Positions 9,955 to 47,882 of a DNA stretch of 64,000 nucleotides are shown here, in pieces. The DNA lies in the IMG/VR virus record IMGVR_UViG_3300050821_003659, positions 11,962 to 75,961 of that record. The stretch is one strand, 5' to 3'. How positions within the stretch are numbered: the first letter of the stretch is position 1; each line of letters begins with the position of its first letter. The DNA is from a virus. A program made the position numbers and the translations under genes. The notes below the pieces were generated by a model. It had not been told where the DNA came from, searched no databases, and worked only from the letters and a program-made list of their open reading frames with translations.

Positions 9955-12038
9955 GACGACTCTGGCTGGACTTCGAAACTCGTTCGATGCTGAACATCAA
10001 AAAGGTCGGTCTTGACCGCTACGGCAAGGACAAGACGACTCAGGTGCTCATGCTGGCGTGGGCTTTTGATTACGACAAACCCCGTCTGTGGCTCCCCTGT
10101 CTCGGGGAACCGATGCCCCCGGAACTCTACGCCGGATTGACAGACCCGACAGTTCTGAAGTGTGCGTGGAACTTTAACTTCGAAAAAGACATCCTGCACT
10201 TTCAACTCGGGATCGCGATTCCGCTGGTTGAGTGGTACGACCCCGCAACGCTTTGTGCTTACATGTCGCTGCCTATCGGCTTGCACCGAGCCAGCCAAGC
10301 ACTCGACATCGACACGAAGAAAGTTCACATCACGGGCGACGAGCGTCCTGTGAAGATGTTCTCGAATCCGTCGAAGCAGTTGAAACGCGTGCTGAAGAAA
10401 AATCCTGACGCACCTGCGTTTTACTTCAAGGATTGGAACTCGCATCCTGAGGACTGGGCGATCTTCTGCTCGTACTGTATTCAGGACGTGGAGGCGGAAC
10501 GCGGCGTGTGGGAGGCTGCGGTCGCATTCAACTCCCCGATGACGCACGGCGAGAAAGAGGCGTGGCTCCTCGACCAGAGGATGAACGACAACGGTGTCTG
10601 GATCGACATGCAGTACGTCCTGAACGCGATGAAGGTCGCACAGGGCGAGGCCGACCAGATCATCGCAGAGATGAAACTGGAAACGGGTCTGGAGAATCCG
10701 AACAGCCGCGACCAGATTCTCGAATGGTTGCAAGCACGCAATTATCCGTTCGAGAGCGTGGACGTTGAGCACATCGAGGAGGCACTGAAAGAACAGAAGC
10801 GTTACAAGATGCCGCCACTCGCGATCAAGATTCTGCTGCTGAAGCAGAAGCTGGGCGGCTCCGCGTACAAGAAGCTGCAAAGCATTCTCGACCGCGTCGG
10901 CCCTGATGGTCGCTTGCGAGATCAGTTCACTTATCACGGAGCACACACGGGTCGGTGGTCTGGACGCGGCGTGCAGTTGCAAAATCTGTACAAGCCTGAC
11001 CGTGAAGTCTCTCGTGCGTTGGAGCAGCTAGTCACCGCACTGCGAGACGGTACGCTCGACATTCCGAATGTCATCACCACGTTTGACGCGGAGATTGACA
11101 CATGGAACTCCGCAAATCCTGCGGAGAAACCAAAGAAGCACCTTGACCCGAAGCCCTTCACACCGATGGAGGTGGTCGCGTCAACGATCCGGGCCGCGTT
11201 CGCTGCGGCACCGGGGAACAAACTGGTTGTCGGTGACCTTGCACAGATCGAGTCACGCGTGCTGGCTGCAATCGCACAGTGTCCGACGATGCTCTCCGCG
11301 TACGCAGAGGGCCGCGATCTTTACAAGGAAGTGATGGCGGCACAACTCGGCATTCCGCTGAGCGAAGTCACCAAGGCACACCGCGACCGAGGCAAGGTCA
11401 TCATCCTCGGCTGCGGATACGGGATGGGCTGGGAAAAGTTCATCGACTACGCCCTCACGTACGGCATCGTGCTCACCGAGAAGGAAGCGAAGGATGCAGT
11501 CTGGGGATTCCGCGAGACGTACAGCGAGATCGTGGACTTCTGGGCAGAGATCAATCAGGCAGTCATCACGGCGTTCAAGGCGGGCATCTGCGTGTACGTA
11601 CGCGGGCTGGTCGTAGATGGGCGAGATGAGAAGTGCCTGAAGATCAAGCTGCCGAGCGGACGGTACATTCACTACCACAAGCCGACACTGCTGTTCGAGC
11701 CTCCACCGTGGGGCGGGCCACCTAAAGAGTCGATCAGCTTCATCATGTACGGCTCGAAGGGTGCGGAGAGCAAGCGGCTTTACGGCGGGCTGCTCACTGA
11801 GAACATCGTTCAAGCGGTCGCACGCGATCTGTTGTTGAACGGCATGCTTGAGGCCGAGAAGATGGGCTTCAAGATCATTATGACGATTCACGACGAGATA
11901 GCTGGTGAGGTGCCAATAGATTCTCCGCTGGGAGAGAAGGAACTTCTGGCGGCGATGTGCATCGTCCCCGAGTGGGGCGAGGGCATGGGGTTCGTACTCA
12001 AGGCAGAAGGGTACGAGAATCCGTACTACAAGAAATAG
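9951..12038 (+). CDS. Phage family A DNA polymerase with 3'-5' exonuclease
   Basis: LDFETRS ExoI, HTGRWSG..VQLQN, DLAQIESRVLA (motif A), RDRGKVIILGCGYG (motif B), TIHDEI (motif C). Confidence 0.95.
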   Translation: MRRLWLDFETRSMLNIKKVGLDRYGKDKTTQVLMLAWAFDYDKPRLWLPCLGEPMPPELYAGLTDPTVLKCAWNFNFEKDILHFQLGIAIPLVEWYDPATLCAYMSLPIGLHRASQALDIDTKKVHITGDERPVKMFSNPSKQLKRVLKKNPDAPAFYFKDWNSHPEDWAIFCSYCIQDVEAERGVWEAAVAFNSPMTHGEKEAWLLDQRMNDNGVWIDMQYVLNAMKVAQGEADQIIAEMKLETGLENPNSRDQILEWLQARNYPFESVDVEHIEEALKEQKRYKMPPLAIKILLLKQKLGGSAYKKLQSILDRVGPDGRLRDQFTYHGAHTGRWSGRGVQLQNLYKPDREVSRALEQLVTALRDGTLDIPNVITTFDAEIDTWNSANPAEKPKKHLDPKPFTPMEVVASTIRAAFAAAPGNKLVVGDLAQIESRVLAAIAQCPTMLSAYAEGRDLYKEVMAAQLGIPLSEVTKAHRDRGKVIILGCGYGMGWEKFIDYALTYGIVLTEKEAKDAVWGFRETYSEIVDFWAEINQAVITAFKAGICVYVRGLVVDGRDEKCLKIKLPSGRYIHYHKPTLLFEPPPWGGPPKESISFIMYGSKGAESKRLYGGLLTENIVQAVARDLLLNGMLEAEKMGFKIIMTIHDEIAGEVPIDSPLGEKELLAAMCIVPEWGEGMGFVLKAEGYENPYYKK

Positions 12039-25778: not shown

Positions 25779-26168
25779 GTGCTGAGCAAACATCGCAGAC
25801 AGATGTCACCCGCTGAGATACGATTCGCGGAGACTACGGTTCACGCAGTGGACACGTGGTGCTTCGACAACGATCACCTGCTACAACGCATGCAGCAGAA
25901 GCAGATCAGCAAGAAGGACGCGGTACTCGCTGCGAAGTACGGCGAAGTCATCCGCGTTCAAGACGACGGTCGCGTGGTAATGCGGCTGATGCGACCAACG
26001 CAGCCGTTCGCGACTGACAAGGTCGGCACCGTCGTTTGCGTCTCGCTGCTCGACAAGACAATCGTCACCGCATGGCACAATGACCCGAAAGACAATCACA
26101 TGTCTGCGGGCTTGGATGCGTACACTTGGCAGGTCAACGTCATCGAATATCTGAGGAGCATACAATGA
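25779..26168 (+). CDS. DUF4258-like protein
   Basis: HLLQRMQQKQISKKD...GEVI...VVCVS....IVTAW pattern; GTG start after GGAG. Confidence 0.55.
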   Translation: MLSKHRRQMSPAEIRFAETTVHAVDTWCFDNDHLLQRMQQKQISKKDAVLAAKYGEVIRVQDDGRVVMRLMRPTQPFATDKVGTVVCVSLLDKTIVTAWHNDPKDNHMSAGLDAYTWQVNVIEYLRSIQ

Positions 26169-27718
26169 AAACTTTCATCGAGTTGTTCACCGACGCCCGT
26201 GCGGTATCGACGCCGTCAGTCGCTATCAAGACCTTCGACGCAACGTCTAGCATCCTCGCTGTGCAGAACAGCATGTCCCCTGAGGAAGCTGAGTTGACGC
26301 CGTTCATCACGTGGGACGCGATACACGGTCTGCGTGGTCTGACTGACGCGGGCACCGAAGCACTCGCTACGATGTGCAACGATGCCAGCGTGCCTGAGGT
26401 TGGTATCTCATGCGATCTGCCCACCGCACTCGGCATCCTCGAACGTGCGAAGCAGGATGTCATCGCCTTCATCCACAATCCACAGTTGGTGTGGAACGAA
26501 GCGAAGTCGGTCGTGCAAGGGTACGCGAACCTTCGCAACGACTACAAGGCACGCGGCAACATGGTCGTCACACTCTTCGGAGTTGGCGACACGATGCCCA
26601 TCGAACTCCAGCAAGACACGCTGGTGCTCGAACACCCACTGCCCACGCGTGACGAACTCGCGAAGATCGTGCGAGAGACGTACGCGTACGCATACAACAG
26701 CGACCCCAAGAAGTACAAGGCGTGCAAGACAGTCGATGAGACGGTCGTTGCACTCGCGGTCGATGCACTGATCGGTCTGCCAGCGTTCCCTGCTGAGCAG
26801 AGCACAGCGATGTGCCTGAACAAAGAGTCTGGCGTGCTCGACATCGTCACACTCTGGGATCGCAAGAAGACAATCGTCGGACAACGCAAGGGCTTGACCT
26901 ACCGCACAGGCGGGCTGAAGCTGCACGACCTGTACGGCGTCGAATCGTTCAAGACCTACGGCAAGCGGCTGATGTCTGGCAGCAAGCCTCCGACAGTCAT
27001 CCTGAGAATGGACGAGATACAACGTCAACTCTCAGGCAACGATACAGACTCAAGCGGCGTCAAGGGTGACCTGCTTGGTGAGTGGCTGACGTGGATCAAC
27101 GACCACGACATCTACTGCACTCTGCTCCTCGGCGTTCCGGGCAGCAGCAAGTCACACAGCATCGACTGCATCGCTGGTGAGTACGGCAAGCCTGTGATCG
27201 ACTACTCGATCTCACGCATGCAAGACTCGCTGGTCGGCAACAGCAACAAGAACATGACGGTCGCCAACAGCACCGTGGACTCGATCAGCGACAAGAACGT
27301 ATGGCTTGTAGCTACGGCGAACAAGCTGGACGGTCTGCCGCCTGAGTTGCTCTCTCGCTTCGCGGACATCTTCTTCTTCGATGCACCGGACGCGGATGAG
27401 TTGGCTGGCATCATGAACCTGAAGCTGGAGGCATACAAACTCGACACGACTCAGCCGCATCCTGACATGACGGGCTGGACTGGTCGTGACGTGAAGAACT
27501 GTGCTGTGAAAGCACAGCGTATGAACTCCACCGTTGTCGAGTGCGGCGAGTACATCATCCCACTGATGACATCGCAGAAGGAAGCGATGGACAAGTTGAG
27601 GCACGATGCTGCTGACCGCTTCCTCAGTGCTTCGAAGCCCGGAGTATACAAGTACACCGAGCCGACAGTGAAGCACACCGCGACCGTGAAGATCACGGAA
27701 GGTCGCAAGATGCGGTAG
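26165..27718 (+). CDS. Ycf46-like AAA+ ATPase with rearranged motif order
   Basis: ILRMDE, LLLGVPGSSKS, VATANKLDGLPPELLSRF..IFFFDAP and GWTGRDV motifs. Confidence 0.85.
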   Translation: MKTFIELFTDARAVSTPSVAIKTFDATSSILAVQNSMSPEEAELTPFITWDAIHGLRGLTDAGTEALATMCNDASVPEVGISCDLPTALGILERAKQDVIAFIHNPQLVWNEAKSVVQGYANLRNDYKARGNMVVTLFGVGDTMPIELQQDTLVLEHPLPTRDELAKIVRETYAYAYNSDPKKYKACKTVDETVVALAVDALIGLPAFPAEQSTAMCLNKESGVLDIVTLWDRKKTIVGQRKGLTYRTGGLKLHDLYGVESFKTYGKRLMSGSKPPTVILRMDEIQRQLSGNDTDSSGVKGDLLGEWLTWINDHDIYCTLLLGVPGSSKSHSIDCIAGEYGKPVIDYSISRMQDSLVGNSNKNMTVANSTVDSISDKNVWLVATANKLDGLPPELLSRFADIFFFDAPDADELAGIMNLKLEAYKLDTTQPHPDMTGWTGRDVKNCAVKAQRMNSTVVECGEYIIPLMTSQKEAMDKLRHDAADRFLSASKPGVYKYTEPTVKHTATVKITEGRKMR

Positions 27719-27859: not shown

Positions 27860-28789
27860 ATGGCGTCACCAGCACCTGCTCTCTCAACTCTGACCACCGA
27901 CGTAGCGAAACTCGACCTGAGCAAGACTGAGGACTGCGTCTTCATCACGACCCACTTCACGATGGGCATCGGTCGCATGAAGCAGATCACCAACCTGAAC
28001 GTCATCACCGACGCAGACCAGAGCCAGTTGCGTCACCAGAAGAAACTGATCGACTCTCCTGAACTCGAAGAGATCAGAAGCCAAGACGGTTTCCTCAAGC
28101 GTTACCTCGACAGCAAGATGTGCCGCTACTCTGAGTCCACTGGGTTTCTGCCACACGTGTTCCTGAAAGAAGTTGACCGTGCGATCATCGCGTACCAGAC
28201 CATCCGGCGTCCGAAGCTGGTGCAGAAGTTCATGGAGAAGTACCGAGCACTCGAAGCGATGGACTTCGCACCGCTGAAGGCTGCACTCGGTTCGCACTTC
28301 AACCGCAGCGACTATCCATCGAGCGAGATCGTAGAGCGTGGCTTCGACTTCACGTTCTACTACCGTCCGGTTGGCAAGGTAAACCTCGAAGGCATCAGCG
28401 ATGTCATCATCGCACGCGAAGCCGAAAAGGAACAGGCCATCCGCCTCGCAGCCGTCACAGAGTGGCGTGACGCACTGCGGTTGGCTGGTGCAGAGATGGT
28501 CGATGCACTCTTCGACATGCTCAAACCTGAGGCTGGCAAGACGAAGAAGCTGTACGGTTGCCACGTCGAAAAGTTGCAAGAGTTCCTCGCGACGTTGCCT
28601 GACCGTGACCTAGCGAACGACACAGACTTCACCAAGAACATGAACGTGGTGAAGGCTGCACTCGAAGGCGTCACCATCGACAGACTGCGAGAGAGCAAGA
28701 GCCTCCAGCAGTACGTTGCTGACAAGGTCGCCACGGTTCGCGAGGACATCAAGAACCTGACAATCGTCTCCGGTCGTCGCTTCCGGTAG
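27860..28789 (+). CDS. DUF3150-like protein
   Basis: KKLID...LGSHFNRSDYPS pattern recalled from phage proteins adjacent to AAA ATPases. Confidence 0.55.
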   Translation: MASPAPALSTLTTDVAKLDLSKTEDCVFITTHFTMGIGRMKQITNLNVITDADQSQLRHQKKLIDSPELEEIRSQDGFLKRYLDSKMCRYSESTGFLPHVFLKEVDRAIIAYQTIRRPKLVQKFMEKYRALEAMDFAPLKAALGSHFNRSDYPSSEIVERGFDFTFYYRPVGKVNLEGISDVIIAREAEKEQAIRLAAVTEWRDALRLAGAEMVDALFDMLKPEAGKTKKLYGCHVEKLQEFLATLPDRDLANDTDFTKNMNVVKAALEGVTIDRLRESKSLQQYVADKVATVREDIKNLTIVSGRRFR

Positions 28790-28844: not shown

Positions 28845-29261
28845 ATGGACAAACCATTCGCACCAACGCCGCAGAAGATCGTGACCATCACCATCGACGA
28901 GAACGGCGACCAAGTCTTTCTGAAGACCGACTCCGCTGATGTGTTTCTCGAACAGGGCGAAGTCATCACACGTCGTGCATCGCACGTTGAACCCGCCGAC
29001 TTCTGGCGGCGTCTGGCGTTCAGTGTACTTCGTAAACTCACACCCGACACGAGCCGCATCGCAGCGTGGACACGCACATGGAACTGCCTCTGGCGTGTGA
29101 ACACGAAGCCTGTCGGTGGCCCGATACTCACGCACTTCCATGTGAAGCCCGAGACGCAGTCGCTGATGTGGGACGCCATCGCGTGGTTCCCCAACAGGCA
29201 GGATGCAATCGATGCTGAGGTTCAGTTTCTGAATCGCTGGTTCGCTGAGAGGACAATCTAA
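28845..29261 (+). CDS. Conserved AAA-module accessory protein
   Basis: ITIDENG...RRASHVEP...RQDAIDAEVQFL. Confidence 0.65.
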   Translation: MDKPFAPTPQKIVTITIDENGDQVFLKTDSADVFLEQGEVITRRASHVEPADFWRRLAFSVLRKLTPDTSRIAAWTRTWNCLWRVNTKPVGGPILTHFHVKPETQSLMWDAIAWFPNRQDAIDAEVQFLNRWFAERTI

Positions 29262-29668
29262 TGAGTGCATACCACACGCAGAAGACGCAGTACAAAGATC
29301 GCGACTGTCTAGTGAAGGCCCTGAACGATCAAGGCTACACGACAGTCGAAGTGCATGAAGTCGCGACGAACCTGTACGGTTATCACGGTGACATGCGTTC
29401 GCAGAAGGCCAACGTCATCGTCCGCCGTCAGTACGTTGGATGTGCAGCGAACGACCTTGGCTTCGTGAAGGCTGAAGACGGCACGTACAGTGCAATCGTC
29501 TCTCAGTTCGACAGCGGCAAGCATGACGCGGGCTGGTTCAAGGGGCTGAAGAAGTCCTACACCGAAGCACGCGACATGAAGACCGCAGCGGCACAGGGTT
29601 TCAAGTTCCTCGGCAAGAAGATCGTCGGGGGCAAAGTTCAACTCCAGTTCGCAGACACGAGGAGCTAA
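29261..29668 (+). CDS. DUF1257 (Ycf35-like) protein
   Basis: MSAYHTQKTQYKDRDCLVKAL...LYGYHGD...NDLGF. Confidence 0.8.
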   Translation: MSAYHTQKTQYKDRDCLVKALNDQGYTTVEVHEVATNLYGYHGDMRSQKANVIVRRQYVGCAANDLGFVKAEDGTYSAIVSQFDSGKHDAGWFKGLKKSYTEARDMKTAAAQGFKFLGKKIVGGKVQLQFADTRS

Positions 29669-29669
29669 C

Positions 29670-29861
29670 ATGGCACTCAAGATAATCACCATCACCATCG
29701 ATGAAGAGGGCGACCAGACGGTCGATCTCACTGGCTACCACGGCAAAGGCTGCGACGCCGTCGCTGATGTCTTCGGTCGAGCACTCGGAGAGACGACCAA
29801 GGTCACTCACAAGCCTGAGTTTAACAAGCCAGCGATCAACAAGAACCTGCTAAGACACTAG
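29670..29861 (+). CDS. DUF2997 protein
   Basis: ITITIDEEG...GYHGKGC...ALG...HKPEF. Confidence 0.8.
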   Translation: MALKIITITIDEEGDQTVDLTGYHGKGCDAVADVFGRALGETTKVTHKPEFNKPAINKNLLRH

Positions 29862-46847: not shown

Positions 46848-47882
46848 ATGGCAGTTCGCACACTCGATCCGAAGCGACAGAGTTACAAAGCTGAGGCACT
46901 CGCGTCACGCCTCTCCCTCCGCATCGTCGGACAGACGGGGCCGACACAGGCCCTCCTCTCCGCAATCGCAAAGTATCAGAGCGGCTTCTACGACAAGACG
47001 AAGCCTATCTTCAGCATGCTTGGACTGGGGCCTACGGGCGTCGGCAAGACTGGCGTGTTTGAAGCCTTCGCGGAGGGCCTGTTCGGTTCTCCGAAGCACA
47101 TGCTGAAGGTTGACTGTGCGGAGTTTCAGCACAGCCACGAGATCGCAAAGTTGGTCGGCTCTCCTCCCGGATATCTCGGACACCGTGAGACGCACCCGTT
47201 CTTTACGAACGCGTCTCTCGCGGCTCTGCGGACTCCTGAGCTAGACTTCACCATCGTTCTCTGGGACGAGATCGAGAAGGCAAGCGACTCTCTCTGGAAT
47301 CTCCTACTCGGCATCCTCGACAAAGGGACGCTAACCACGGGGACGAACGAGAAGGTTGACATGACGAAGACGGTTCACCTCATGACCAGCAACGTCGGCT
47401 CTGCGGACATCAGCGACGAGGCATCTATCGGCTTCGACGCTGGACAGAAGCAGATGACCGACCAGCAGGTGAGCGACACCGTGATGGCTGCGGCACGCCG
47501 CAAGTTCATGCCCGAGTTCCTCGGTCGTCTGGACGAGATCGCGGTGTTCAAGACTCTGACCGAGTCTGAGATCGCAGAGGTGCTGGGGCTGCAACTGAAC
47601 GACCTGAGCGACCGCATCATGCTCAGTGCACCTGTACCTTTCGAGTTCAACGTGTCGCCCGCTGCTATCCGGCAACTGCTGAAGGAAGGATACGACAGGC
47701 GATACAACGCACGCGGTTTGAAGCACGTGATCGAGAAGCACATCGCCCTCCCCCTTGGACGGCTGATGTCAACCGGACAGGTGATGCCAAATGACATCAT
47801 CATCGTGGACTTCGACCAGAACTGGAAATACTATGCCCAAATCCCCCTTGCCCGAGCCGCTGCGGAAGGCGATATACTTTAG
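46848..47882 (+). CDS. Single-domain Clp (ClpA/B/C D2-type) AAA+ ATPase with an IGF loop
   Basis: GPTGVGKT, GSPPGYLG pore loop, WDEIEKA, MTSNVG, SIGFD, PEFLGRLDE and NARGLK. Confidence 0.9.
   Translation: MAVRTLDPKRQSYKAEALASRLSLRIVGQTGPTQALLSAIAKYQSGFYDKTKPIFSMLGLGPTGVGKTGVFEAFAEGLFGSPKHMLKVDCAEFQHSHEIAKLVGSPPGYLGHRETHPFFTNASLAALRTPELDFTIVLWDEIEKASDSLWNLLLGILDKGTLTTGTNEKVDMTKTVHLMTSNVGSADISDEASIGFDAGQKQMTDQQVSDTVMAAARRKFMPEFLGRLDEIAVFKTLTESEIAEVLGLQLNDLSDRIMLSAPVPFEFNVSPAAIRQLLKEGYDRRYNARGLKHVIEKHIALPLGRLMSTGQVMPNDIIIVDFDQNWKYYAQIPLARAAAEGDIL

Follow-up and report, generated by a model that had tools for sequence, protein, structure and literature searches.

The core of classical AAA+ ATPases is a parallel sheet with the strand order 5-1-4-3-2. 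To our knowledge, the order in which the strands and motifs of P-loop ASCE proteins follow each other along the chain is treated as invariant, and it underlies both the classification of these proteins and the profile models built for them. A different motif order, G4-G5-G1-G2-G3, is found in the circularly permuted GTPases (YlqF/YawG/RsgA) of the TRAFAC class, where the whole domain has been permuted and new termini have been created. Proteins with non-cyclic permutations form a class that is known but rare (PMC2096629). Here, we analyzed a 64,000-nucleotide stretch of phage DNA (hereafter the window; positions 11,962 to 75,961 of the 75,961-base IMG/VR record IMGVR_UViG_3300050821_003659) and, within it, the gene of a Ycf46-like AAA ATPase whose Walker B block is encoded ahead of its Walker A block. 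In our judgement this ATPase is likely to represent a fixed, non-cyclic segment swap in the AAA+ ASCE core that arose once, has not been described before and now characterizes a large, mainly tailed-phage family (hundreds to thousands of clusters at 50% identity), in which a working active site and the ancestral partners have been kept.

Order of the core blocks in the phage ATPase and its relatives

The ATPase is encoded in one open frame. Its likely start is the ATG at 26165, directly 3' of a GAGGAG Shine-Dalgarno sequence, and its stop codon lies at 27716-27718. The gene and its parts, in coordinates of the window, are the following:

26165-27718, + strand: swapped-core ATPase gene, 517 residues, predicted Ycf46-like two-tier AAA ATPase
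26165-26884, + strand: N-terminal domain (N-domain), residues 1-240, alpha/beta with a helical lid, without a P-loop
26987-27109, + strand: block B, residues 275-315, with strand b3 and Walker B, pore loop 2 and helix a3
27110-27292, + strand: block A, residues 316-376, with strand b1, Walker A, helix a1, strand b2, pore loop 1 and helix a2
27293-27664, + strand: block C, residues 377-500, with strand b4, sensor 1, the Arg finger, strand b5 and the helical lid
27701-27715, + strand: C-terminal tail GRKMR, which resembles the GRRFR end of the DUF3150-like protein encoded next to it

Block B holds the Walker B motif VILRMDE (residues 278-284, with D283 and E284 at 27011-27016) and pore loop 2, which reads SGNDTDSSG. 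Walker A, GVPGSSKS, follows in block A (residues 323-330, 27131-27154), together with pore loop 1, SLVG (27227-27238, within SLVGNS). The stretch VWLVATAN..LPPELLSRF of block C provides N386 as sensor 1 (27320-27322) and R398 as Arg finger (27356-27358), and R441 stands at the sensor-2 position of the lid (27485-27487).

The original prediction for this gene, an earlier reading of the window, had placed Walker B before Walker A and had interpreted this as an internal exchange of two contiguous blocks rather than a circular permutation of the domain; its positions for the DE pair and for Walker A were exact, and the order itself was borne out when homologues were examined, as it had proposed. 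We gathered 375 family members, with identities down to ~30%, from JGI, ENA, NCBI and Logan assemblies, and built hidden Markov models (HMMs) from the family for block N (residues 1-270), block B (275-315), block A (316-376) and block C (377-460). With these models, every one of the 375 members showed the order N-B-A-C. The canonical sisters, in contrast, had the order N-A-B-C in 124 of 124 cases; this set comprised two loci of our collection, L006 and L007, two jumbo-phage loci (L019, L020) and the 120 best relatives of L006. Canonical relatives are named AAA family ATPase, SpoVK/Ycf46/Vps4 family or, in UniRef, 'AAA domain-containing protein [ycf46]'.

The canonical protein of L006 (L006:5788-7206, 472 residues) is the product of a Desulfobacterales chromosomal gene recovered in a scan of bacterial genomes, and that of L007 is near-identical to it. 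Both proteins run from GIPGCGKS to SLVGQSEANMREALKVIE, then to VTVFIDEIEKQFAG..DGG..FLTFMQD and finally to IFVVATAN..LPPEMLRAGRFD. When the HMM of the swapped family was compared with the L006 protein, four significant matches were obtained, out of order:

N-domain: HMM positions 43-253 against residues 35-229 of the L006 protein, 82.6 bits
Block A: HMM positions 298-354 against residues 239-295, 61.2 bits
Block B: HMM positions 260-299 against residues 300-342, 27.7 bits
Block C: HMM positions 359-467 against residues 341-449, 60.1 bits

The separate block HMMs scored 50-85 (N), 39-47 (B), 52-73 (A) and 43-55 bits (C) on canonical proteins. Since the 41-residue block B model finds the Walker B region of the canonical relatives at 39-47 bits, the order observed in the phage family is not a chance motif match. 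Three breakpoints separate the two orders, namely a0|b1, a2|b3 and a3|b4. The N-domain and block C stay put while A and B, which lie next to each other, have traded places, so that a circular permutation of the whole domain was rejected; the swap equals a circular permutation of the A+B sub-segment alone.

Profile searches recognized the protein piecemeal, as had also been anticipated from its sequence. PF00004 reached 32.7 bits and thus passed its gathering threshold of 21.2 bits, a score that is summed from two partial stretches, the better of which sets residues 320-364 against profile positions 2-46 of 131. phrog_8638 matched in three stretches (85 bits) and gave no colinear full-length match. 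On the canonical L006 protein, by comparison, PF00004 covered positions 1-128 of 131 at 87 bits and phrog_8638 matched in one stretch at 304 bits. In a phmmer search of the PDB, residues 319-368 aligned with residues 80-129 of Msp1 and residues 375-446 with its residues 176-252, leaving just six query residues to face the 46-residue segment that forms the Walker B strand and helix of Msp1; the usual place of Walker B is empty. N386 and R398 align to Msp1 and VAT. The family profile gave no separate, out-of-order Walker B match when compared with the PDB; such a match was obtained only against the closer canonical relatives. By structure, the best viral matches, and the nearest named ones in BFVD, came from phages and carried the name 'AAA domain-containing protein ycf46' (TMq 0.66), and the look-alike clusters in the ESM Atlas had a viral share of 71-95% and no name beyond 'AAA family ATPase'.

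The swapped family is large. A word-indexed search gave 722 relatives, and the 120 listed among them were nearly all full-length and colinear with the query, at 51-94% identity. When 1.84 billion cluster representatives were searched with a profile, 6638 clusters at 50% identity were obtained with E<=1e-3, 1196 of them with E<=1e-30, and each of the best 150 of the 6638 clusters matched the query in one colinear stretch. The sole match in a cultured phage was gp103 of Tunturiibacter phage Tunturi_3, which is annotated as 'ATPase' and is 35% identical. Alignments of diverse representatives read hhhhDEhEK..AG..DxSG..L..WMQD, GxPGxGKS, SLVGxSE and IATCN..LPPELRRRF everywhere, in this order. E284, N386 and R398 are invariant (375/375), K329 is found in 374 sequences (with one alignment gap) and G323 in 373, and residue 283 is Asp in 368 sequences and Glu in the other seven. 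The GSSKS form of Walker A, which had been pointed out before, is true of this protein and holds as a family trait only in part: the alignment consensus is GxPGxGKS, and position 328 (27146-27148) is Ser in 166 sequences, Gly in 120 and Ala in 77, with G326, K329 and S/T330 fixed. The features of classical AAA proteins, that is, Walker A, a Walker B of the form hhhhDE, a polar sensor 1 residue and an Arg finger, are thus present, and we infer from the sequence that the protein is an active, Ycf46-like ATPase of the classical clade.

Within block C, the strongest coevolving pair of the family is 397-441 (z 24.7), with S397-R398 encoded at 27353-27358. Approximately 190 sequences combine R397 with A441, and approximately 165, including this protein, S397 with R441. 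In classical AAA proteins, two Arg fingers go together with Ala at the sensor-2 position, which corresponds to R397 and A441. Judged from these residues, an arginine that acts in trans as a finger seems to have been relocated to sensor 2, where it would act in cis.

Predicted placement of the displaced segment in the fold

AlphaFold2 (AF2) was run without templates on alignments of 27 and 118 sequences, which gave a predicted local distance difference test score (pLDDT) of 85.4 for the former, and a pLDDT of 95.8 with a predicted template modelling score (pTM) of 0.90 for the latter. Both models contain the same elements: strands at residues 278-282, 317-323, 344-347, 379-385 and 401-405, helices at 299-313, 329-339 and 357-375, and the lid helices. 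The five core strands equal the strand count of an AAA core. The whole model (residues 1-486) superposes on the D1+D2 tiers of p97/Cdc48 with Z 17-18 (VIA), and comparison of the active tier with Vps4, spastin and p97-D2 gave Z 15-16 and a root-mean-square deviation of 3.0-3.5 A over 200-212 of ~250 residues. This number of aligned residues is about what is left of the range without the 41-residue block B, because a sequential aligner cannot place that block.

We also used mean-field direct-coupling analysis on the 375 sequences (Meff 247; 28,920 pairs). Among the ten possible strand pairs, b3-b4 was the strongest by far and had a parallel register (279-285 against 380-383), with I285-A383 at rank 24, L280-L381 at rank 41, I279-W380 at rank 64 and M282-L381 at rank 68. 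The second-strongest strand pair was b1-b5 (L321-F405, rank 28), and weak in-register couplings linked b1 with b4 (316-379, 318-381 and 320-383). In the canonical fold, helix a1 crosses over b4 and b3, and helices a2 and a3 are neighbours on the other face. Here, couplings connect R281, on the moved strand, with I333/D334 in a1, and a3-a2 pairs account for ten of the 150 highest-ranked ones. Such a coevolution pattern would be expected if the moved strand took up the canonical Walker B position beside the sensor-1 strand. The structure prediction suggested along with the original prediction came out in the same direction: AF2 and coevolution together indicate that the strand with MDE lies beside that of sensor 1, although the strands were traced indirectly.

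On this basis the chain would run b3-a3-b1-a1-b2-a2-b4-a4-b5, and the strands would assemble into a normal parallel sheet with the spatial order b5-b1-b4-b3-b2, or 5-2-4-1-3 when numbered along the chain. Helix a3 would cross b4 to reach b1 and helix a2 would cross b3 to reach b4, so that each of the two would reach one strand further. Because both connections keep their direction of travel over the sheet, the handedness of the crossovers and the faces on which the helices lie would be kept. The active site would likewise be preserved, with the P-loop Lys, the Asp-Glu pair of Walker B, the sensor 1 Asn and the Arg finger acting in trans, and so would both pore loops. We regard it as highly probable that the block swap is real and conserved and that the canonical three-dimensional site has been retained.

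Several points weigh against this interpretation. The pairing of strand 278-282 and the proximity of D283/E284 to the P-loop were deduced indirectly, from AF2 secondary structure and confidence together with coevolution. Coevolution is weak for b3-b2 and for b1-b4, with ranks of 260-470. P-loops almost always have a glycine directly ahead of the Walker A lysine; in the GSSKS of this protein S328 takes its place, which is unusual and might lower activity.

These points bear on the possibility that the RMDE segment lies outside the nucleotide site, as a linker or inter-domain element, and that the protein is a four-stranded pseudo-ATPase without a Walker B that is catalytically dead or merely binds ATP. 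The Pfam and PDB searches, which find no Walker B where it is normally located, the deviating Walker A and the indirect placement of RMDE would all agree with such a protein. However, block B shows homology to the canonical segment of Walker B and a3 (the 39-47 bits given above), including DEIEKQFAG and the DxSG loop; E284 is invariant throughout the family, alongside N386 and R398 and the nearly invariant K329; the strongest coevolution of the RMDE strand is with that of sensor 1; and AF2 predicts five core strands with confidence instead of four. We therefore consider a pseudo-ATPase improbable.

A slightly lower probability still is assigned to an arrangement in which the swapped block completes the core of the neighbouring subunit, so that three-dimensional domain swapping in the ring would build each active site from two chains. 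Domain swapping sometimes accompanies permuted connections, and neither coevolution nor conservation can separate contacts within a chain from those between chains. Nevertheless, in the AF2 monomer the strand is paired, with a pLDDT of 90-98 over residues 270-320, and the junction loops a3-b1 and a2-b4 are only 3-4 residues long, as in the canonical relative, which fits insertion of the block within its own chain. Finally, a contig artefact (misassembly, local rearrangement or a wrong frame) hiding a canonical gene has nothing in its favour beyond the unusual order and is refuted by the single 517-residue frame and by homologues, colinear and 30-94% identical, that come from hundreds of separate assemblies as well as from cultured Tunturi_3, since all 375 are swapped and the canonical order that the original prediction had named as the sign of an artefact was seen in none.

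Origin, neighbouring genes and possible function

In a maximum-likelihood tree of the AAA cores, for which the blocks had been put in a common order, one branch parts the 124 canonical from the 375 swapped sequences (support 0.99, length 0.66). This branch is consistent with one event, and the swap probably had a single origin, even though the canonical sample is narrow, consisting of one bacterial clade and two jumbo-phage sequences. The swap would have taken place in a canonical Ycf46-like ancestor that already carried the N-domain and the partner genes, and the simplest route to it would be a partial tandem duplication of A-B, after which the first copy of A and the second copy of B were lost.

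A scan of viral contigs for related loci gave 13 loci. Downstream of the ATPase gene, the window encodes the following proteins:

27860-28789, + strand: diverged DUF3150-family protein, 309 residues; 6 of 12 homologues match PF11348, and the gene lies by the ATPase gene in 13 loci
28845-29261, + strand: 138-residue protein with a DUF2997-like N-terminus, a conserved neighbour
29261-29668, + strand: DUF1257 (Ycf35-type) protein, matching PF06868 with E 5e-9
29670-29861, + strand: DUF2997-like protein, matching PF11211 with E 6e-5 and 23.2 bits, which is under the cut-off of 24.1; homologues occur in related loci

Genes for DUF3150-like, DUF1257 and DUF2997 proteins accompany the swapped ATPase in 9-13 diverged phage loci; the identity between the ATPases of such loci is no more than 31-73%. 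The DUF1257 neighbour is kept in L001, L004, L005, L008-L011 and L016, and it also follows the canonical ATPase in L006, where the genes for DUF1257, DUF3150, a single-stranded DNA-binding protein (SSB) and a PD-(D/E)XK nuclease come after that of the ATPase. In cyanobacteria, DUF2997 and DUF1257 (ycf35) form a conserved cluster (PMC4284462). The partner set predates the swap, from which it follows that the swapped enzyme most likely keeps the job of its canonical sister.

What this job might be can only be proposed tentatively, and we hold the following to be possible rather than likely: a two-tier ring that would thread or remodel a protein substrate together with the DUF1257, DUF2997 and DUF3150 partner proteins, encoded in the early or replication gene region. 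We read the protein as a threading ring because it has a pore loop 1 of the form [S/K][L/H]VG, a pore loop 2 of the form AG..DxSG, an Arg finger and a D1-like upper tier. Against such a role stands that it is deduced solely from family resemblance and gene neighbourhood. The upper tier corresponds to the N-domain, which has a conserved STP..A.RT.D motif and no P-loop, is homologous to the N-domain of the canonical Ycf46-like proteins and superposes on the D1 tier of p97/Cdc48. Because this N-domain is shared, proteins of the Ycf46 type would have to be seen as AAA proteins of two tiers, the upper one being a pseudo-ATPase.

Further observations were made on these genes and their products. The ATG of the ATPase gene overlaps the stop codon of an upstream DUF4258-like gene (25779-26168) as ATGA (26165-26168), which suggests translational coupling of the two. 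The ATPase and the DUF3150-like protein share a C-terminal motif (27701-27715 and 28772-28786, respectively) that co-varies between phages (loci L004-L017). Both proteins end in GRK[MFIV]R in the clade of the window, and in R-x-[IL]-x-[FLV]-x-acidic in distant phages, for example ARTISVED/NRCITFDEE and GRSLSLGED/TRAITFEDE; the shared sequence suggests a docking or targeting tag. The start of the 138-residue protein, KIVTITIDENGDQ, is close to that of the DUF2997-like protein, KIITITIDEEGDQ, and the L004 homologue of the former matches both window proteins (28845-29261 and 29670-29861) by BLASTP. The other flank of the canonical ATPase in L006 carries a type III restriction helicase and its DNA methylase, and the region (L006:1271-11395) looks like a prophage or another mobile element. 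Elsewhere in the window, PF00004 matches once more, weakly (17.7 bits, over profile positions 2-93), at 47019-47321 (G000:C1:58980-59282) in a 345-residue frame.

Significance and comparison with known systems

A search of the full-text literature found neither an AAA+ protein with Walker B before Walker A nor this family, an absence that is no proof as most subscription journals lay outside the search. If the swap is as we describe it, the family would be one of the rare cases in nature of an enzyme whose core has been rewired, and would indicate that an AAA+ core can be rewired to a degree that goes beyond circular permutation, with a bearing on fold evolution, on studies of folding pathways and on protein design. 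The swapped family and its canonical sister, which have partner genes in common, would form a matched natural pair in which the effects of connectivity on folding, allostery and mechanics could be compared. The family also marks a blind spot in annotation: domain profiles return a partial AAA match, and such proteins would be called Walker-B-less or inactive. Moreover, a widespread and uncharacterised module (Ycf46-like AAA, DUF1257/Ycf35, DUF2997 and DUF3150) is linked to a phage and a host that are both in culture, Tunturi_3 and T. psychrotolerans X5P2.

The closest known system is that of the Ycf46-like AAA proteins (COG0464 SpoVK/Ycf46/Vps4; phrog_8638), which share with the swapped family four homologous blocks, a length of ~470-520 residues and the DUF1257 and DUF3150 neighbours. 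The loop of the Walker B block, DEIEKxxAG followed by DxSG/DGG, is also common to both. They differ in that canonical Ycf46-like proteins run N-A-B-C and match PF00004 from end to end, whereas the swapped family runs N-B-A-C and matches it piecewise. To type II AAA proteins (p97/VCP, Cdc48, Rix7/NVL and AFG2) and the single-tier Vps4, spastin and FIGNL1, the phage protein is linked by the superpositions of its model given above, and it shares with them a pore loop 1 of the form hydrophobic-Val-Gly, the sensor 1 Asn in the second region of homology and the Arg finger; unlike classical type II AAA proteins, it has an upper tier without a P-loop and another core order, and the identity is 13-19%. 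Like the circularly permuted GTPases, finally, it is a P-loop NTPase with a changed motif order in which the three-dimensional site would be kept, but here an internal pair of blocks is exchanged within an ASCE/AAA+ core and the flanking domains remain in place.

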